This document shows, one piece after another, positions 2,645 through 40,355 of a stretch of 64,000 nucleotides of DNA. The stretch is from a phage. A model generated the notes under the pieces. That model did no database searches and was not told the origin of the DNA. It was given only the letters and a program-made list of their open reading frames with translations. Within the stretch, counting starts at the first letter, position 1, and every line of letters begins with the position of its first letter. Both the position numbers and the translations under genes were made by a program. The DNA lies in the NCBI GenBank assembly GCA_037574385.1, contig GCA_037574385.1_4529.1; one strand, written 5' to 3'.

Positions 2645-4116
2645 GGTCCAAATACGTCTTCAAACGAATCCGCTTCTGTTTTATCAAAACGGAACCCTTT
2701 AATAATTGGAAGGAAAATACCTACAGTACCTTCACGGCCTTTAGAATGAACCCAACCATTACATTCGCAATCAGCAATACGTCCGATCAATTTACCTTCA
2801 CGAGCTTCGGTCATTAATCGTTCACGGTCTAAATCATGACGCTCGTCTAAAGGAATAAGAACCTTTACACCGTCAACTGTTTTATGAGTTGTATCTTTAA
2901 AACCTGAACCACAATCGGTTGTAATACGACGACAACGTGATACGAGTTCGACACCGCCTAATTTGTTAGGGTCTTTAGAGTGTTCATAGTATCCTACAAC
3001 TTCTAAAGCGATATCAATAACTTCTTTAAATTTAATTAGGTTCTTAGAGCGTTTGTTTTCCCAATATGAATCACGGTTTTTAAGGATAATACCTTCAAGA
3101 CCTTGGTCAACATATTTTTTATAAACCACTTTAGCTTCATCAAGATTACGAACTAACTGGTTTTCGATAGGTTCAATTCGTTTAAAGCCTTCAGCCATAT
3201 TTTCAAGAGCAGCAAAACGAACATCGTATTTCTGACCTTTAATTTTGCCATCAGAATAGACTTCATCTAAAGGAACATAGTCCCAGGCTTGAAGAACCAT
3301 ACCTTCCGCTTCTTTAGGAGAAATAGTCCCTTGAAGAGATTTATTTGCTAAACCATTTGAAGTGCTACGGTCTGCAACTTGTACTTCTTCGGATTCTTCA
3401 TTATCACCAAATAAGAACGACAGGTCATTTCCTGAGCTCACAGCCTTTTTAATATCAAATGAATGATAAACTAATTCACCATCAATTAAAACCCCATTAG
3501 GGTGTCTTTCACGAGCTTCTTTAGTCATTTCCATTAGTTCATCTGCTAATAGGGTAAGACCATGGTATTCGTTACCGGCGCGAGAAAAGAATTGAACACC
3601 ATCATCGCGAACTTCAGCGAAACAACGAGCACCATCTGCTTTTAATTGGGCAAATGCGGGCCATTTAATATTTTTAGTAATCAATTTCTCATCATATGCA
3701 GATGCTAACATCTGTGGTTGCAATTGAATAAGACCAGGCCACACCTTATTCGCGATAGACACTGAAGCACCTACTTCAAGGTCGCGCATCATTACACGAC
3801 GAAGGACTTCTACATCATCAGGTTTACCATCAGCGATATAACCCATGAGCTCTTTAATTGCAGCATTACCAGTGAGTTTACGAGTGGCTAATGTGAACTC
3901 AATAAAATCCAACATGTCATCTAATTCAAGAAGACCATATGCTTGGGACCTTTCACCTGGTCCTGGCCATTTCTTAATATAATACTGGATACCACGTGCA
4001 TATGTTAAACGATACACACGTTCAAGTAATTTGTTGTCCTTATTTTTCTTAAGGATTTCCTGTTTTGTTTTAGTAGAACCGATCGCAGCTATTTGGTTTA
4101 AAATATCTAAAATCAT
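2623..4116 (-). CDS. 30: ATP-dependent DNA ligase
   Basis: 497 aa; adenylation motif KADGAR (KxDG); strong overall resemblance to T4 gp30 (487 aa). Confidence 0.85.
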   Translation of the reverse strand: MILDILNQIAAIGSTKTKQEILKKNKDNKLLERVYRLTYARGIQYYIKKWPGPGERSQAYGLLELDDMLDFIEFTLATRKLTGNAAIKELMGYIADGKPDDVEVLRRVMMRDLEVGASVSIANKVWPGLIQLQPQMLASAYDEKLITKNIKWPAFAQLKADGARCFAEVRDDGVQFFSRAGNEYHGLTLLADELMEMTKEARERHPNGVLIDGELVYHSFDIKKAVSSGNDLSFLFGDNEESEEVQVADRSTSNGLANKSLQGTISPKEAEGMVLQAWDYVPLDEVYSDGKIKGQKYDVRFAALENMAEGFKRIEPIENQLVRNLDEAKVVYKKYVDQGLEGIILKNRDSYWENKRSKNLIKFKEVIDIALEVVGYYEHSKDPNKLGGVELVSRCRRITTDCGSGFKDTTHKTVDGVKVLIPLDERHDLDRERLMTEAREGKLIGRIADCECNGWVHSKGREGTVGIFLPIIKGFRFDKTEADSFEDVFGPWSQTGL

Positions 4117-6561: not shown

Positions 6562-6602
6562 TTTATTCTCCAGATGTTTAAGTTGTTTGTTGGTACAGGT
6601 CT

Positions 6603-6631
6603 ATAATAACATAACCTGTACCAAAGTAAAC
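6603..6631 (-). promoter_or_regulatory. Early promoter module with 9-bp inverted repeat flanking -10
   Basis: GTTTAC-N17-TATTAT; arms GGTACAGGT / ACCTGTACC on either side of the -10; SD GGAGAATAAAATG downstream. Confidence 0.55.
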
Positions 6632-6635
6632 TGTT

Positions 6636-7004
6636 TTATGCAACTTTAATCCAATTGTCTAAATTTAAAACACCTTTGGCTTTCATTTTTTCGATAAGGT
6701 TATCTGCTGTAATGCGTCCATTTTGATACCATGTAACATCTTCAGAGTAACCAGTTTCTTCGTCAACATATGTTTCTGAACGAATTTTACCGGTAATAAT
6801 AGTTTTTAATTCGTATGTGTCACCTGTGAAAAAGTTTGCTAACACAATTTTCCAAGAGAAATCATTTGAAGGACCTTCAGGGGTCATACAACCTACGATC
6901 TCAAATTGCTCTTTGTATAACATCCATTGGAATTCTTTAATTTCGATAGCTTTATAACCGTCGTGGTCTTTACATTCGATGTATGAGTTCAGATTGATTT
7001 TCAT
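6636..7004 (-). CDS. Hypothetical protein
   Basis: 122-aa ORF with own PeSL-type promoter and SD GGAGAATAAAATG. Confidence 0.55.
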   Translation of the reverse strand: MKINLNSYIECKDHDGYKAIEIKEFQWMLYKEQFEIVGCMTPEGPSNDFSWKIVLANFFTGDTYELKTIITGKIRSETYVDEETGYSEDVTWYQNGRITADNLIEKMKAKGVLNLDNWIKVA

Positions 7005-7045
7005 TTTATTCTCCAGTTTGTTTTATTGATTAGGTGGTACAAGTC

Positions 7046-7075
7046 TATAGTAACACATCCTACAGGAGAGTAAAC
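7046..7075 (-). promoter_or_regulatory. Early promoter module (PeSL-like)
   Basis: GTTTAC-N18-TACTAT followed by AGAC and SD. Confidence 0.5.
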
Positions 7076-7110
7076 ATCTTTTTAAACTTTTTCTGCCCTA
7101 AACACACAAA

Positions 7111-7130
7111 AGGGAGACCGAAGTCTCCCT
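7111..7130 (-). terminator. UUCG-tetraloop hairpin (AGGGAGAC-UUCG-GUCUCCCU)
   Basis: Perfect 8-bp stem after the small basic protein gene. Confidence 0.5.
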
Positions 7131-7134
7131 AAAA

Positions 7135-7311
7135 TTATGCAACAACCTTTCCAAAACGAGAAGCATCATCTCGAAGAACTGCACGTGCTCTGCGCATGAT
7201 CTTCTCAACTGTTTGATTAATACGAGAGTTCGACCCACGCTTGTATCCAGCGCGTTTAGAATCACCGACTTTCTTTTCAACTGCTTTCTTTGCTTTAGTT
7301 TGTTTTGCCAT
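7135..7311 (-). CDS. Small lysine/arginine-rich basic protein (58 aa)
   Basis: Hand-called: MAKQTKAKKAVEKKVGDSKRAGYKRGSNSRINQTVEKIMRRARAVLRDDASRFGKVVA; followed by UUCG hairpin. Preferred over overlapping track ORFs 7098..7280(-) and 7213..7398(+). Confidence 0.5.
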   Translation of the reverse strand: MAKQTKAKKAVEKKVGDSKRAGYKRGSNSRINQTVEKIMRRARAVLRDDASRFGKVVA

Positions 7312-7683
7312 TATAAATTCTCTTTAAATGAAAATGCAGGACTTATTGACATTGCCTGCTCAAGCCCTCAAGGGGAACATAGGTTTTTGGATATTTAACG
7401 ACCAGGATAACCATAAACCCGTCATCATACCTTATAGCTCTTATCTGTTGCACACCGTTAGCTTAAAGGTTCCGGGTTCGATTTCTCGAGGATAAGATAT
7501 ATACTGATGGATATATAGGCCTTGAGGCGTACTCCCGATTAGCCATCACCTCGGGGTAGCATGCACTTACCGCTATAAGAACAACATTCAAGAGGTACAC
7601 CGTAAAATTGTCGGGGCGGTACTTCTAAAACATACCGATTCGCAAATCGATAATCAGACAATTCGACGGCTCCTCGATTTAAC

Positions 7684-7932
7684 TTACTTCAGGGTAATAA
7701 CAAAATGACGAACTGCTTTACGAGCTGCTGAAGCCAGAGGCTTAGCATATTTCAATTCATCTTTCTGAGCCAGGATATCACGAAGATCGGCCTGTGCTGG
7801 ATTCAGATGTTTGAAATATCGCAGGATTTCCAGTGCTTCGGCTTCAACATCAATTGACGCGCCGTAGTTTTCGTGGCCATTATTCCATGCATGGCGTTGC
7901 AGTTCAAGAGCGTGTTGTAATTGTTTAATCAT
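7684..7932 (-). CDS. rIII: rIII lysis-inhibition accessory protein
   Basis: 82 aa, same length as T4 rIII; adjacent to gene 31 as in T4. Confidence 0.7.
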   Translation of the reverse strand: MIKQLQHALELQRHAWNNGHENYGASIDVEAEALEILRYFKHLNPAQADLRDILAQKDELKYAKPLASAARKAVRHFVITLK

Positions 7933-8048
7933 TTTAAATTCTCAATTCGAGATAATATTTAGTAGCCACGTTCGTCTGAATTTCACCTTCTTTCGACAGG
8001 TCTCTCAGTTGTAGGCTACCGCTTAGAAGAGTGTTCTCTTCATATAGT

Positions 8049-8056
8049 TATTTATA
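8049..8056 (-). promoter_or_regulatory. Candidate late promoter (TATAAATA) upstream of rIII
   Basis: Exact TATAAATA on - strand, but about 115 nt from the rIII start. Confidence 0.3.
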
Positions 8057-8389
8057 TCACTTATAAAGACACGGAATAGCTTTATAGTGGCATGTTACGA
8101 ATTTCTGTTTAATTTCTTTAGGTTGTTTAAGACCTAAAGCCACAAATGGATGTGGAACATTTCGAATTTGTCCAACTGGTAGTGGAGTCAAATCACCGAC
8201 TTCAACAAAACCTTCAGGAACATCAGGACCTACAGAATGAACTACACATAGTTCAGGAACTTCACCTTGAACACGTTTACCAATCACAAGTCCTGATTCG
8301 GTAACTTCTTCATCACCTGCTTGAGCGGGTTCAGAAACCAGAATGACATATTCACCAACAGCACGAATTGGGAGTTGTACTTCAGACAT
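8057..8389 (-). CDS. 31: Gp31 co-chaperonin (GroES analogue) for capsid protein folding
   Basis: 110 aa; near-identical in character to T4 gp31 ([33 protein letters not shown]). Confidence 0.85.
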
Positions 8390-8399
8390 CTTATTTCCT

Positions 8400-8435
8400 T
8401 GTTGTTTGACGATAGATTAATAATACCATACTATT
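8400..8435 (-). promoter_or_regulatory. Candidate MotA-dependent middle promoter for gene 31
   Basis: - strand ATATGCTTTACAAATAGTATGGTATTAT: MotA-box-like TGCTTTA about 11 nt upstream of -10 TATTAT. Confidence 0.4.
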
Positions 8436-38686: not shown

Positions 38687-40012
38687 TCAAAGTGCCTCCA
38701 AGTCTTTAGTGTACTCTGTCACAACATCGGTAGACTTCCAATACTCATTTTCTTCTTTCTTAGCTTTAGCTTCTTCTGCTAGTTTACGTGCTTCATCGGA
38801 AGTGATATGGAAGATGTTAAGACCTACCAGTTTATCAACATGTTCTTTATACATTTCGATTTGTGCTAGCTCTTCAGTCAAAGCTTTACGAGTCTTGCCC
38901 TGAATCACAATTTCACCACTGATAACTTTTTTGATGAAGTGTGCCTTAGCAAAAGCAAGTTTAAATGCTTTTTCAGATTCAAGGATTTTGTTGTCAATAC
39001 GTTTCTGAACGTAAGTCTTACGGACTTCAACAAAATCTTTGATTAAGTCTACTACATTATCGTAGACCGCTAATTTACCTTTTTCATTAATCACTGTGAT
39101 GTTTTGTGAACGACGTTCGATGAGACTAAAATCTTTCATGATTTTTTCATGACGTAGCTCTTCATCGTCTGGAAGCGAGTACTCTTTACGGAACTTCACC
39201 TTAAACCCAAATCCATGTTCACCACAATCATCTTCCCATGAGATTAGACCTTTATCTTCTAATGGGTCAAGAACCTTACTCACATACGTTTCACGGTCGA
39301 ATTTATATGGGATTTCAGTTATCTGCATTTGAGTACGAGATGTGAACTTATATGTTCCGTGAATCTCATAACGCCCATCAACTTCATGTACTTCACCACG
39401 GAATTCCGGGAATTCAACTTTTGGCTTAGTGACATTTTTACCTTGAAGAGCTTGTAATACAGCCTTTTTGACTGATTTAAAACTATGAGGCAGAATATTT
39501 GTTGCATAACCGGTTGCAATACCGGAGACACCATTCAAAAGAACTGTCGGAATAATAGGAAGATAGAATTTTGGTGGAATATGTTCTTTATCTTCATGAG
39601 TTGGAGCATATTCGGTATCTTTATAGACATTATAGAAATTTTTGCTTACACGAGCAAAAATATAACGAGATGCCGCAGCTTTTTGGACTGTTCTAGAACC
39701 AAAGTTGCCTTGGCCATCTAACAGTGGATAGTTGTTGTTCCATGTGTTAGCCATTAATGCACCTGCATCTTGTGCAGAAGATTCACCATGGTGATAACCT
39801 AAATCTGCAACACCACCCGCAATTGACGCAAGTTTATGAAATTTTTCTTTATTACCACGAGCCAAATCTAACGCACGATGGACCACAAAACGTTGAACCG
39901 GCTTAAATCCATCAATCATGTTTGGGATTGCACGGTTTTCAACGGTGTACATCGCATATGCTAAGGCTTCGTTATCAATAATACTTTTTAGATTACGAGA
40001 ATTCAATTGCAT
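38687..40012 (-). CDS. 52: DNA topoisomerase II medium subunit gp52 (GyrA-like)
   Basis: 441 aa (T4 gp52 442 aa); GyrA-like N-terminal region; position next to motA. Confidence 0.8.
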   Translation of the reverse strand: MQLNSRNLKSIIDNEALAYAMYTVENRAIPNMIDGFKPVQRFVVHRALDLARGNKEKFHKLASIAGGVADLGYHHGESSAQDAGALMANTWNNNYPLLDGQGNFGSRTVQKAAASRYIFARVSKNFYNVYKDTEYAPTHEDKEHIPPKFYLPIIPTVLLNGVSGIATGYATNILPHSFKSVKKAVLQALQGKNVTKPKVEFPEFRGEVHEVDGRYEIHGTYKFTSRTQMQITEIPYKFDRETYVSKVLDPLEDKGLISWEDDCGEHGFGFKVKFRKEYSLPDDEELRHEKIMKDFSLIERRSQNITVINEKGKLAVYDNVVDLIKDFVEVRKTYVQKRIDNKILESEKAFKLAFAKAHFIKKVISGEIVIQGKTRKALTEELAQIEMYKEHVDKLVGLNIFHITSDEARKLAEEAKAKKEENEYWKSTDVVTEYTKDLEAL

Positions 40013-40016
40013 ATTT

Positions 40017-40157
40017 TCACCATATTAATGAACGAATAACCATTATAACATCTGAAATGAAAAGCACTACTTGGATTAGTCCAAACATCACACCGTAGTA
40101 CAGAACCGTAAGCAACAACAAGAGCCCGAAGGCTCCTGTTAAGATTTTCTTAATCAT
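40017..40157 (-). CDS. Small hydrophobic membrane peptide (46 aa)
   Basis: Hand-called: MIKKILTGAFGLLLLLTVLYYGVMFGLIQVVLFISDVIMVIRSLIW; start overlaps stop of the upstream small ORF (TAATG). It contains a UUCG hairpin in its coding sequence, so it may instead be non-coding. Confidence 0.35.
   Translation of the reverse strand: MIKKILTGAFGLLLLLTVLYYGVMFGLIQVVLFISDVIMVIRSLIW
40122..40135 (-). terminator. UUCG-tetraloop hairpin (lies within candidate small ORF)
   Basis: GAGCC-UUCG-GGCUC on - strand. Confidence 0.35.
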
Positions 40158-40303
40158 TACTCGCCTTTTAATACGTTAAGAAGAGCTAAGACTGCTAAGG
40201 TACCTTGTGATACGGCCTGTTGAAATACTGTTGTTTCGCCCGTAACTAAAGTGTTAACGAATAAAAACGACCAACACAGCAATGCAATAATCCATGCTAC
40301 CAT
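40157..40303 (-). CDS. Small hydrophobic membrane protein (48 aa), ac-like by size and position
   Basis: Hand-called: MVAWIIALLCWSFLFVNTLVTGETTVFQQAVSQGTLAVLALLNVLKGE; SD GAGGT upstream; T4 has the small membrane gene ac between ndd and 52. Confidence 0.45.
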   Translation of the reverse strand: MVAWIIALLCWSFLFVNTLVTGETTVFQQAVSQGTLAVLALLNVLKGE

Positions 40304-40355
40304 TTTAATTACCTCAAAAATAAATTAAAGGCCTAACTTAATAGGTCCGTATAAA

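Follow-up and report, generated by a model that had tools for sequence, protein, structure and literature searches.

The 372-bp spacer between the genes rIII and 30.9 of a T4-like phage hosts a candidate new functional RNA of about 150 nucleotides (nt), which we call the core RNA. The spacer occupies positions 7312-7683 of a 64,000-nt stretch of phage DNA (the window; NCBI GenBank assembly GCA_037574385.1, contig GCA_037574385.1_4529.1). The source phage is of the Tequatrovirus type, with 99.6% identity to Shigella phage ESh27 and 98.9% identity to Escherichia phage phiC120 over positions 6600-8400, and its minus strand carries all the local genes (gp31, rIII, the 30.9-like gene and 30.8). The spacer extends from the stop codon of rIII, at 7684, to the start of the 30.9-like gene, at 7311. 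The core RNA and the genes of the locus are the following:

8057-8389, minus strand: gp31, the co-chaperonin (Cpn10 match)
7684-7932, minus strand: rIII, the upstream gene, co-oriented with the RNA (phrog_1457, E = 3.6e-42)
7431-7579, minus strand: core structured RNA, about 149 nt when measured between the outer ends of its closing helix P1, defined by a covariance model and by covariation
7135-7311, minus strand: 30.9-like gene for a small basic protein of 58 amino acids (aa), downstream of the RNA (phrog_1427, E = 1.4e-30)
6636-7004, minus strand: 30.8 (PF06019)

An earlier note on this DNA, made from the letters of the window alone, had described a spacer of about 370 bp between rIII and a small basic-protein gene, and the matches listed above confirm the identity of both genes. 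The spacer is also the longest real non-coding stretch of the window, as had been proposed. It is overlapped only by open reading frames (ORFs) of at most 61 aa, none of them conserved, and the sole larger gap free of ORFs of at least 50 aa (40013-40355) contains two tandem small hydrophobic ORFs. The local increase in GC content reported for the region depends on the side that is taken for comparison: the GC content at 7400-7700 (0.44) exceeds that of the sequence to the left (0.32-0.39) and does not exceed that of rIII itself (0.44-0.46). The curated T4 record has no annotation between 30.9 and rIII.

When folded as a single sequence, the central 166 nt reach an energy no better than that of dinucleotide shuffles (z = -0.31 on the minus strand and -1.06 on the plus strand). 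The stems alone are therefore not above chance, and the evidence for a fold is its covariation across phages. We aligned 12 phage copies from about 12 genera with MAFFT (alignment A4), which is unbiased with respect to any structural model. RNAalifold returned 44 consensus pairs on this alignment, 24 of which show compensatory double changes. The covariance model built from this fold (R1) has a single match in the window, at 7429-7581 on the minus strand (174 bits, E = 1.5e-33). A larger set of 47 copies, 33 of them distinct, was aligned to the covariance model and a kissing loop was added to the fold, for a total of 49 pairs and 1,616 cells (alignment A6). Among the 33 distinct sequences, 98.4% of the cells are standard pairs and double changes occur at 32 of the 49 pairs, as compared to 6-9 in six controls with a slid register; the fit to the model inflates the pair counts. 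None of 500 shuffles of the copies aligned to the covariance model reaches any of the pairing measures. The paired cells include 71 G-U combinations and only one A-C, which indicates that the folded molecule is the minus-strand transcript and neither its complement nor duplex DNA. A structured non-coding RNA had been among the candidates suggested for the region, together with a folding and covariation comparison across related phages; this comparison strongly supports it.

The elements of the fold that carry most of this signal are listed below in minus-strand order:

7572-7579, minus strand: 5' strand of P1, CUUAUAGC, which pairs with 7431-7438 (GCUAUAAG)
7543-7548, minus strand: apical 6-nt loop of P3, UGAUGG, a kissing partner that forms six pairs with 7505-7510
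7505-7510, minus strand: 6-nt loop of hairpin P4, CCAUCA, the other kissing partner, complementary to the P3 loop
7478-7489, minus strand: P6, a 4-bp hairpin (UCGA-GAAA-UCGA) in which all four pairs covary (CG/UA/UG/GC/AU)
7452-7477, minus strand: P7 (ACCCG/CGGUGU) with a 15-nt almost invariant loop, GAACCUUUAAGCUAA, with invariant columns in A4; two of its five pairs covary

The core is predicted to fold into a four-way junction of the helices P1, P2, P4 and P5 without unpaired linkers. All five modelled pairs of P1 have changed on both sides across phages (UA, AU, GC and CG), and at the DNA level this helix looks like an 8-bp terminal inverted repeat (CTTATAGC...GCTATAAG). P2 is nearly invariant (GGU/GCC in the source phage and GGC/GCC in most copies) and extends through a highly conserved internal loop of 8 x 6 nt (AAGUGCAU / CUCAAG) into the long hairpin P3, which includes the CCCGA/TCGGG stem (7534-7538 / 7551-7555) and in which 8 of 10 pairs covary. 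The P2-P3 arm and the adjacent P4 are predicted to be joined by a 6-bp kissing loop. Each of the 33 distinct sequences keeps exactly six Watson-Crick pairs between the two loops, in one of five versions (CGAUGG/CCAUCG, UGAUGG/CCAUCA, CUAUGG/CCAUAG, CAAUGA/UCAUUG and UGCAUU/AAUGCA), and non-cognate combinations of P3 and P4 loops form on average 3.7 pairs. Double changes are found at four of the six kissing pairs, and one pair has gone from C-G to U-A in eight sequences with no single-sided change. P5 (UCUUAUC/GAUAAGA) bears P6 and P7 in a three-way subdomain. Most copies have a P6 loop of the GNRA type (GAAA or GUAA), some have UAAA or UAAU instead, and the loop is longer in the copies of Slopekvirus and Pseudotevenvirus; the junction 3' of P7, GCAACA, is nearly invariant. 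Additional pairings that we considered by eye (UGCA/UGCA between J1/3 and J7/5, and GAGG/CCUC and AAGG/CCUU with the P7 loop) are not compensated in the variants. A screen of all columns against all others for covariation was too noisy, since the two most divergent sequences differ almost everywhere.

Sequence conservation of the core is high and concentrated outside the helices. The source phage shares 90-99% identity over the core with JS98, Merlin, myPSH1140, JD18, PEi20 and F48, as compared to 71-90% over gp31, rIII and 30.9 in the same phages. Identity decreases to 74-85% in Muldoon, EcL8g, Cronus and EcS1, where the advantage over the flanking genes is small or absent; taken over most genera, the flanking genes range from 69% to 90%. 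Most of the 54 invariant columns of A4 fall in junctions and loops. An abundance of invariant unpaired positions, a covarying contact that locks the junction and a conservation above that of the neighbours would be typical of RNAs with specific binding or catalysis, and atypical of simple stability hairpins or of antisense small RNAs. The core thus shows the conserved and covariation-supported aptamer-like fold by which riboswitches are generically recognized. Altogether, we are highly confident that the minus strand of 7431-7579 encodes a genuine structured RNA, selected on the sense strand.

The fold does not correspond to any family in Rfam 15. The window has no match at the gathering thresholds, the interval 7429-7581 has none even at E <= 10, and the homologues in JD18, Cronus and K41P2 have none at E <= 1. 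ARAGORN finds no tRNA or transfer-messenger RNA gene in the window, so that a tRNA-like nature is not supported either; scans of both kinds had been proposed as checks, and neither assigns the element to an Rfam family or to the tRNAs.

To describe how the core RNA is distributed, we compared the spacer with 50,697 phage records by blastn. The spacer matched 994 records, and the core alone was found in 408 of them, always in one copy; rIII is present in 1,117 records. For T4, T2, RB6 and many further Tequatroviruses, the match is confined to the ends of the spacer (58% coverage, in two pieces). Distant genera, represented by the Klebsiella Jiaodavirus JD18 and by Enterobacter ZX14, match only the middle 135 nt or so, with 93-94% identity, and the match in Merlin is longer (spacer positions 50-267, 83%). 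The alignment with T4, JD18 and Merlin delimits the following segment:

7430-7583, minus strand: segment of about 154 nt that is absent from T4 and includes the whole core

The comparison with the rIII-30.9 region of T4, which had also been suggested, therefore shows that T4 lacks this segment with clean boundaries, and the covariance model finds no match to the core RNA at the T4 locus. JD18 and Merlin share the segment and little else of the spacer. In every Tevenvirinae-type or related genome that we examined, the core is located in the rIII-30.9 spacer, on the sense strand of the genes. The genomes are JS98 (Dhakavirus), Merlin (Moonvirus), myPSH1140 and EcL8g (Karamvirus), JD18 (Jiaodavirus), PEi20 (Kanagawavirus), F48 and VAC36 (Marfavirus), Muldoon (Muldoonvirus), Cronus (Roskildevirus) and EcS1 (Kagamiyamavirus). 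Its placement within the spacer varies: in Merlin, myPSH1140 and Cronus the core immediately follows the upstream stop codon, in JD18 and the source phage it is set 90-130 nt apart from rIII by other sequence, and its distance to the start of 30.9 ranges from about 40 to 180 nt across genera. No copy lies downstream of rIII in phages of Providencia, of Acinetobacter (two phages of two genera), of Aeromonas, or in the Serratia phage WSPA, a relative of Muldoon.

Diverged copies of the core (105-119 bits) occupy a second locus, at the 3' end of the uvsY operon, in the Klebsiella Slopekviruses K41P2 and mtp5 and in the Cronobacter Pseudotevenvirus JC03. They show compensating changes in P1, P3, P5, P7 and the kissing loop. 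No co-oriented gene is annotated downstream of them and the next gene, uvsW, is convergent. At exactly this site, most Slopekviruses, which lack the core RNA with clean boundaries, have another non-coding cassette of about 150 nt (in vB_KpnM_05F, or 05F, L053 at about 545-700 on the plus strand; compare K41P2, L008, 1085-1260), followed by the same small hairpin, GUACCCGAAAGGGGCUUG. This cassette bears no relation to the core RNA by covariance model, Rfam or blastn, and it may be another exchangeable non-coding RNA. In K41P2, an apparently non-coding, GC-rich and hairpin-forming stretch of about 180 nt (L008, 1260-1440) separates the RNA from a bidirectional terminator shared with uvsW, and it is conserved in 05F.

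Outside phage records, blastn returned no copies in E. coli genomes (E <= 1) or in plasmids. Five contigs of bacterial metagenome-assembled genomes with an exact 19-mer were chance hits, with no match to the covariance model. A two-anchor pattern scan of metagenomes gave 14 loci, all matched by the covariance model, the long contigs among them (54-174 kb) having the size of T4-like genomes, and relaxed one-anchor patterns in IMG/VR gave only chance matches or the same 20 loci. In the pattern scans of IMG/VR, metagenomes and bacterial genomes and in the blastn searches of E. coli and plasmids, the core was found on contigs of T4-like phages only. This distribution is that of a single-copy accessory module of enterobacterial T4-like phages, optional and movable.

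The remainder of the spacer is composed of further modules, all on the same strand as the core:

7580-7683, minus strand: module A, spacer 5' of the core, common only to T4/JS98-type phages (alignments A1 and A2)
7390-7429, minus strand: module B, about 40 nt, with the order UAUGAUG (GUAUGAUG)-stem-UUGUAGGUUAUC-stem-GUUAAAUA, conserved also in T4
7361-7377, minus strand: hairpin C, CCCC-UUGA-GGG followed by CUUG, found with the RNA in nearly all phages
7336-7359, minus strand: hairpin D, GCAGG-14 nt-CCUGC followed by the U-rich AUUUUCAUUU, terminator-like in sequence
1262-1279 in K41P2 (L008), about 1180-1200 in L005 and about 1125-1145 in L007: homologues of hairpin C

The four short stems quoted in the earlier note are all present and are distributed over these modules and the core. 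In addition to CCCGA/TCGGG within P3, CGGTA/TACCG (7617-7621 / 7633-7637) and CGATT/AATCG (7637-7641 / 7645-7649) lie in module A, and GCAGG/CCTGC (7336-7340 / 7355-7359) is the stem of hairpin D. The hairpins of module A are CGAUU-UGCG-AAUCG and GUACCG...CGGUGUAC, the first with one compensatory change (C-G here and U-A in T4 and JS98). For module B, RNAalifold returns a 5-bp stem with two covarying pairs, which is weak evidence. The order of the core and of modules B and C varies between genera. Module B lies downstream of the core in the source phage and upstream of it in JD18, F48, PEi20 and Muldoon; hairpin C, with the general form CCC(C)-4 nt-GGG(G)CUUG, follows the RNA in most phages and precedes it in EcL8g and EcS1. 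Hairpin C occurs at both genomic loci, in T4 as well, persists in phages without the RNA, and has no other good match in the window; judged by eye, it does not fit the consensus of a MotA box or of a late promoter. Hairpin D lies just upstream of the Shine-Dalgarno sequence of 30.9 (AAAGAG, at about 7320-7325), and JD18 and Merlin have a longer equivalent, GGGAGC...GCUCCC. A near-perfect hairpin, ACGCCCACCAUGUGUACGCAUGGGUAACG, stands beside module B in JD18 (L002, about 2725-2755, minus strand), in F48 and in Cronus (L006, about 1345-1376). Its occurrence on different sides of the RNA makes it another shuffled spacer module.

Two signals on the minus strand frame the transcription of the locus:

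8049-8056, minus strand: T4-type late promoter box TATAAATA, just upstream of rIII, with the T4 late consensus
7111-7130, minus strand: intrinsic terminator AGGGAGACUUCGGUCUCCCU with a U-rich tail, after 30.9, the first strict terminator downstream of rIII

The late promoter box is the likely source of the transcripts that run through the RNA. The promoter scan calls no promoter-like site on the minus strand between rIII and the core, the strict terminator scan does not call hairpin D, and the core has no U-run. From the late box, the lack of a promoter between rIII and the core and the position of the first terminator after 30.9, we infer that the RNA is part of the rIII-30.9 mRNA. Two cues in the earlier note had implied the opposite strand, at variance with the G-U and A-C counts reported above. 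The TTGACA hexamer that had been taken for a -35 box is present on the plus strand (7346-7351), where no promoter-like site is called, and it falls in the loop of hairpin D, antisense to the local genes. Similarly, the T-arm-like sequence GGGTTCGATTTC (7474-7485, plus strand) is the antisense of P6 and P7, and, as described, the window has no tRNA gene.

As to what the RNA does, we tentatively favor the reading that it folds as a self-contained domain and, as an autonomous accessory RNA, binds a protein or a small ligand, and that it is not a dedicated cis-regulator of 30.9. It would be made within the rIII-to-30.9 transcript, and the folded RNA would bind its partner either inside the mRNA or after excision. 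Several points weigh against this reading or against its structural basis. The larger alignment was fitted to the model, so that the MAFFT-based counts of A4 are the unbiased result. The copies are phylogenetically related, and some of the near-identity, such as the 99% between the source phage and JS98, may reflect recent recombination rather than constraint. P2 is so nearly invariant that it is unproven, and the junction without linkers depends on it. The transcription, processing and stability of the RNA are predictions from sequence. A cis role for 30.9 within the Tevenvirinae, where the RNA is always upstream of this gene and of a terminator-like hairpin, keeps a small share of the probability. 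Finally, nothing that we computed points to a particular binding partner. With regard to a small RNA that would pair with target mRNAs in trans, the 64-kb window contains no complement to the two longest invariant single-stranded stretches, the P7 loop included, and blastn gives no similarity to E. coli genomes at E <= 1.

Among the alternatives, a cis-acting leader or riboswitch-like sensor, in which a metabolite or a protein (gp30.9, RIII or S1) would control read-through of hairpin D or the initiation of 30.9 translation, is unlikely in our view. All the Tevenvirinae-type genomes examined do have the RNA upstream of 30.9 and co-oriented with it, and hairpins C and D, a U-rich tract and the ribosome-binding site of 30.9 come after it. 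P1, the multi-helix junction, the kissing arms and the invariant junction nucleotides could also be seen as resembling large aptamers, such as that of the lysine riboswitch. The locus is tied to RNA biology through RIII itself: the T4 protein is reported to bind the host ribosomal protein S1 and to block the activation of the RegB RNase, and thereby to affect RegB-dependent mRNA processing (PMC9409239). This tie suggests a possible connection to the RNA. However, T4 keeps modules B, C and D and 30.9 without the RNA; the distance to the start of 30.9 is variable and module B can intervene; and the copies at the uvsY locus have no annotated co-oriented gene to regulate, uvsW being convergent. 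Together, these observations argue against a dedicated cis-regulator of 30.9. Furthermore, we found by eye no alternative pairing of the 3' strand of P1 with an element downstream, and no riboswitch model in Rfam matches at E <= 10.

A self-cleaving ribozyme or a processing element, which would split the rIII/30.9 mRNA or trim a 3' untranslated region (UTR), is likewise improbable. The element is intercistronic or in a 3' UTR, co-oriented, patchy in its distribution and found in more than one context, as self-cleaving ribozymes carried by phages typically are. Two neighbouring arms docked at a four-way junction would recall the architecture of the natural hairpin ribozyme, and the large internal loop between P2 and P3 is nearly invariant on both sides. 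On the other hand, no ribozyme model in Rfam matches even at E <= 10, no conserved candidate cleavage site can be named, and at 150 nt the element would be large among the known small self-cleaving classes.

We give still less weight to a passive role in mRNA stability, namely that the RNA blocks 3' exonucleases or RNase E scanning and protects the mRNA of rIII or of the uvsY operon. Such a role would fit its position, which directly follows the upstream stop codon in Merlin, myPSH1140 and Cronus and, at the second locus, closes the uvsY operon. Yet blocking an exonuclease needs just a stable hairpin, whereas the 54 mostly unpaired invariant positions and the covarying tertiary contact indicate specific recognition; moreover, in JD18 and the source phage the intervening 90-130 nt of other sequence would leave the RNA away from rIII.

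Very little probability remains for an element that acts as DNA, whether as an origin of replication, as a promoter region or as a miniature mobile element bounded by terminal inverted repeats. The 8-bp terminal inverted repeat, the presence or absence of the segment with clean boundaries, its occurrence at two loci and the plus-strand TTGACA hexamer could all be taken in its favor. However, the inverted repeat covaries as an RNA helix, and the fold tolerates G-U and not A-C, a strand-specific pairing that is hard to reconcile with the origin or DNA regulatory element that had been suggested. There is one copy per genome, the T4 breakpoints show no target-site duplication, the loci examined have no transposase or endonuclease gene next to the segment, no promoter-like site is called at the hexamer, and no copies occur in E. 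coli genomes, plasmids or contigs of bacterial genomes. The same observations on copy number, T4 breakpoints and P1, together with the lack of a conserved frame, speak against a decayed ORF or mobile-element remnant, the last of the origins that the earlier note had considered.

A coding sequence or frameshifted gene remnant is hardly tenable: despite short ORFs on the minus strand (27/28 aa, MANREYASRPI..., and 34 aa, MLPRGDG...) and on the plus strand (55 aa), several differences between the source phage and JD18 that are synonymous in the 27-aa frame, and the one to three 'hypothetical proteins' that several public records annotate there, no ORF is common to all members, indels of 1-2 nt occur in Cronus, EcL8g and L033, variable columns are spread evenly over the codon positions of the best candidate frame (18/19/19), the copies of Slopekvirus and Pseudotevenvirus have another frame, and the substitutions are accounted for by paired compensatory changes. 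The 27-aa ORF had at first seemed supported by its synonymous differences from JD18, and the more divergent copies ruled it out.

By analogy of architecture, the closest known systems to the self-contained RNA that we favor are junction riboswitches with loop-loop contacts (lysine and purine) and ribozymes with four-way junctions (hairpin and twister-sister); since no Rfam model matches, membership in any of these classes is not supported. With the lysine riboswitch (L-box, RF00168), and more loosely with the purine riboswitch, the core RNA shares P1, a multi-helix junction and two arms that kiss through their loops. The kissing interaction of the L-box is 6 bp long. The lysine riboswitch is also similar in its peripheral hairpin of the GNRA type, in its many invariant junction nucleotides and in its size (about 150-170 nt). 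Unlike its single five-way junction, the core RNA has a four-way and a three-way junction, has no Rfam match at E <= 10 and does not lie upstream of lysine genes. The hairpin and twister-sister ribozymes share a four-way junction that pairs neighbouring arms, as well as intercistronic positions and a patchy occurrence in mobile or viral genomes, but their arms dock through internal loops, whereas those of the core RNA kiss through Watson-Crick pairs of terminal loops. Among the RNAs of the T-even phages, the T4 species 1 and 2 RNAs (rnaD/rnaC) are comparable, by their description only, as non-coding RNAs of about 120-140 nt without assigned function; they lie in the tRNA cluster and are present in T4, in contrast to the core RNA, which T4 does not have and which occupies the rIII-30.9 spacer.

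Few viruses have been studied as thoroughly as the T4-like phages, which also find wide use in phage therapy. To our knowledge, their standard annotation includes no conserved non-coding RNA with a complex fold beyond the tRNAs and the species 1 and 2 RNAs, and we found no description of an RNA between rIII and 30.9 in the searchable literature. Fremin, Bhatt and Kyrpides (2023) reported 10,006 unnamed motifs supported by covariation in phage contigs of IMG/VR, including cis-elements near gp20 and gp32 (PMC10690425); rIII, T4-like phages, Tevenvirinae and Klebsiella are not named in its text, and the motif may or may not be among the 10,006 entries. We rate the core RNA as a candidate new family without known relatives, as judged from Rfam and the searchable literature.

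More ambitiously, the core RNA could be the founding member of a new class of phage RNAs with a complex fold and a biochemical activity of their own, exchanged as a cassette among T4-like phages, a proposal that we regard as possible though doubtful. If it is true, the RNA could sense or sequester a small molecule of the host or of immune signalling, it could act on a host RNA-binding protein or nuclease (S1, for example) as a decoy or an inhibitor, or it could be a new self-cleaving ribozyme, and its loss from the model phage T4 would explain why it has been overlooked. The element behaves as an optional cassette, as anti-defence or host-takeover genes do. Since T4 and many of its relatives are natural knockouts with close relatives that carry the RNA, its function is directly testable.

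The locus also bears on genome annotation. Public records such as vB_EcoM-G3G7, UPWr_E4, VAC36, YUEEL01 and AV119 call one to three 'hypothetical proteins' over the non-coding spacer, and in some of them the 58-aa gene for 30.9, or the spacer, is given the name '1,4-alpha-glucan branching enzyme, GH-13'. Both kinds of annotation are probably errors, and the covariance model would correct the spurious 'hypothetical protein' calls in about 400 genomes. Elsewhere in the window, the two tandem hydrophobic ORFs within the gap at 40013-40355 (46 and 48 aa; 40017-40303, minus strand) lie directly downstream of an ORF similar to the large subunit of topoisomerase (38687-40012).

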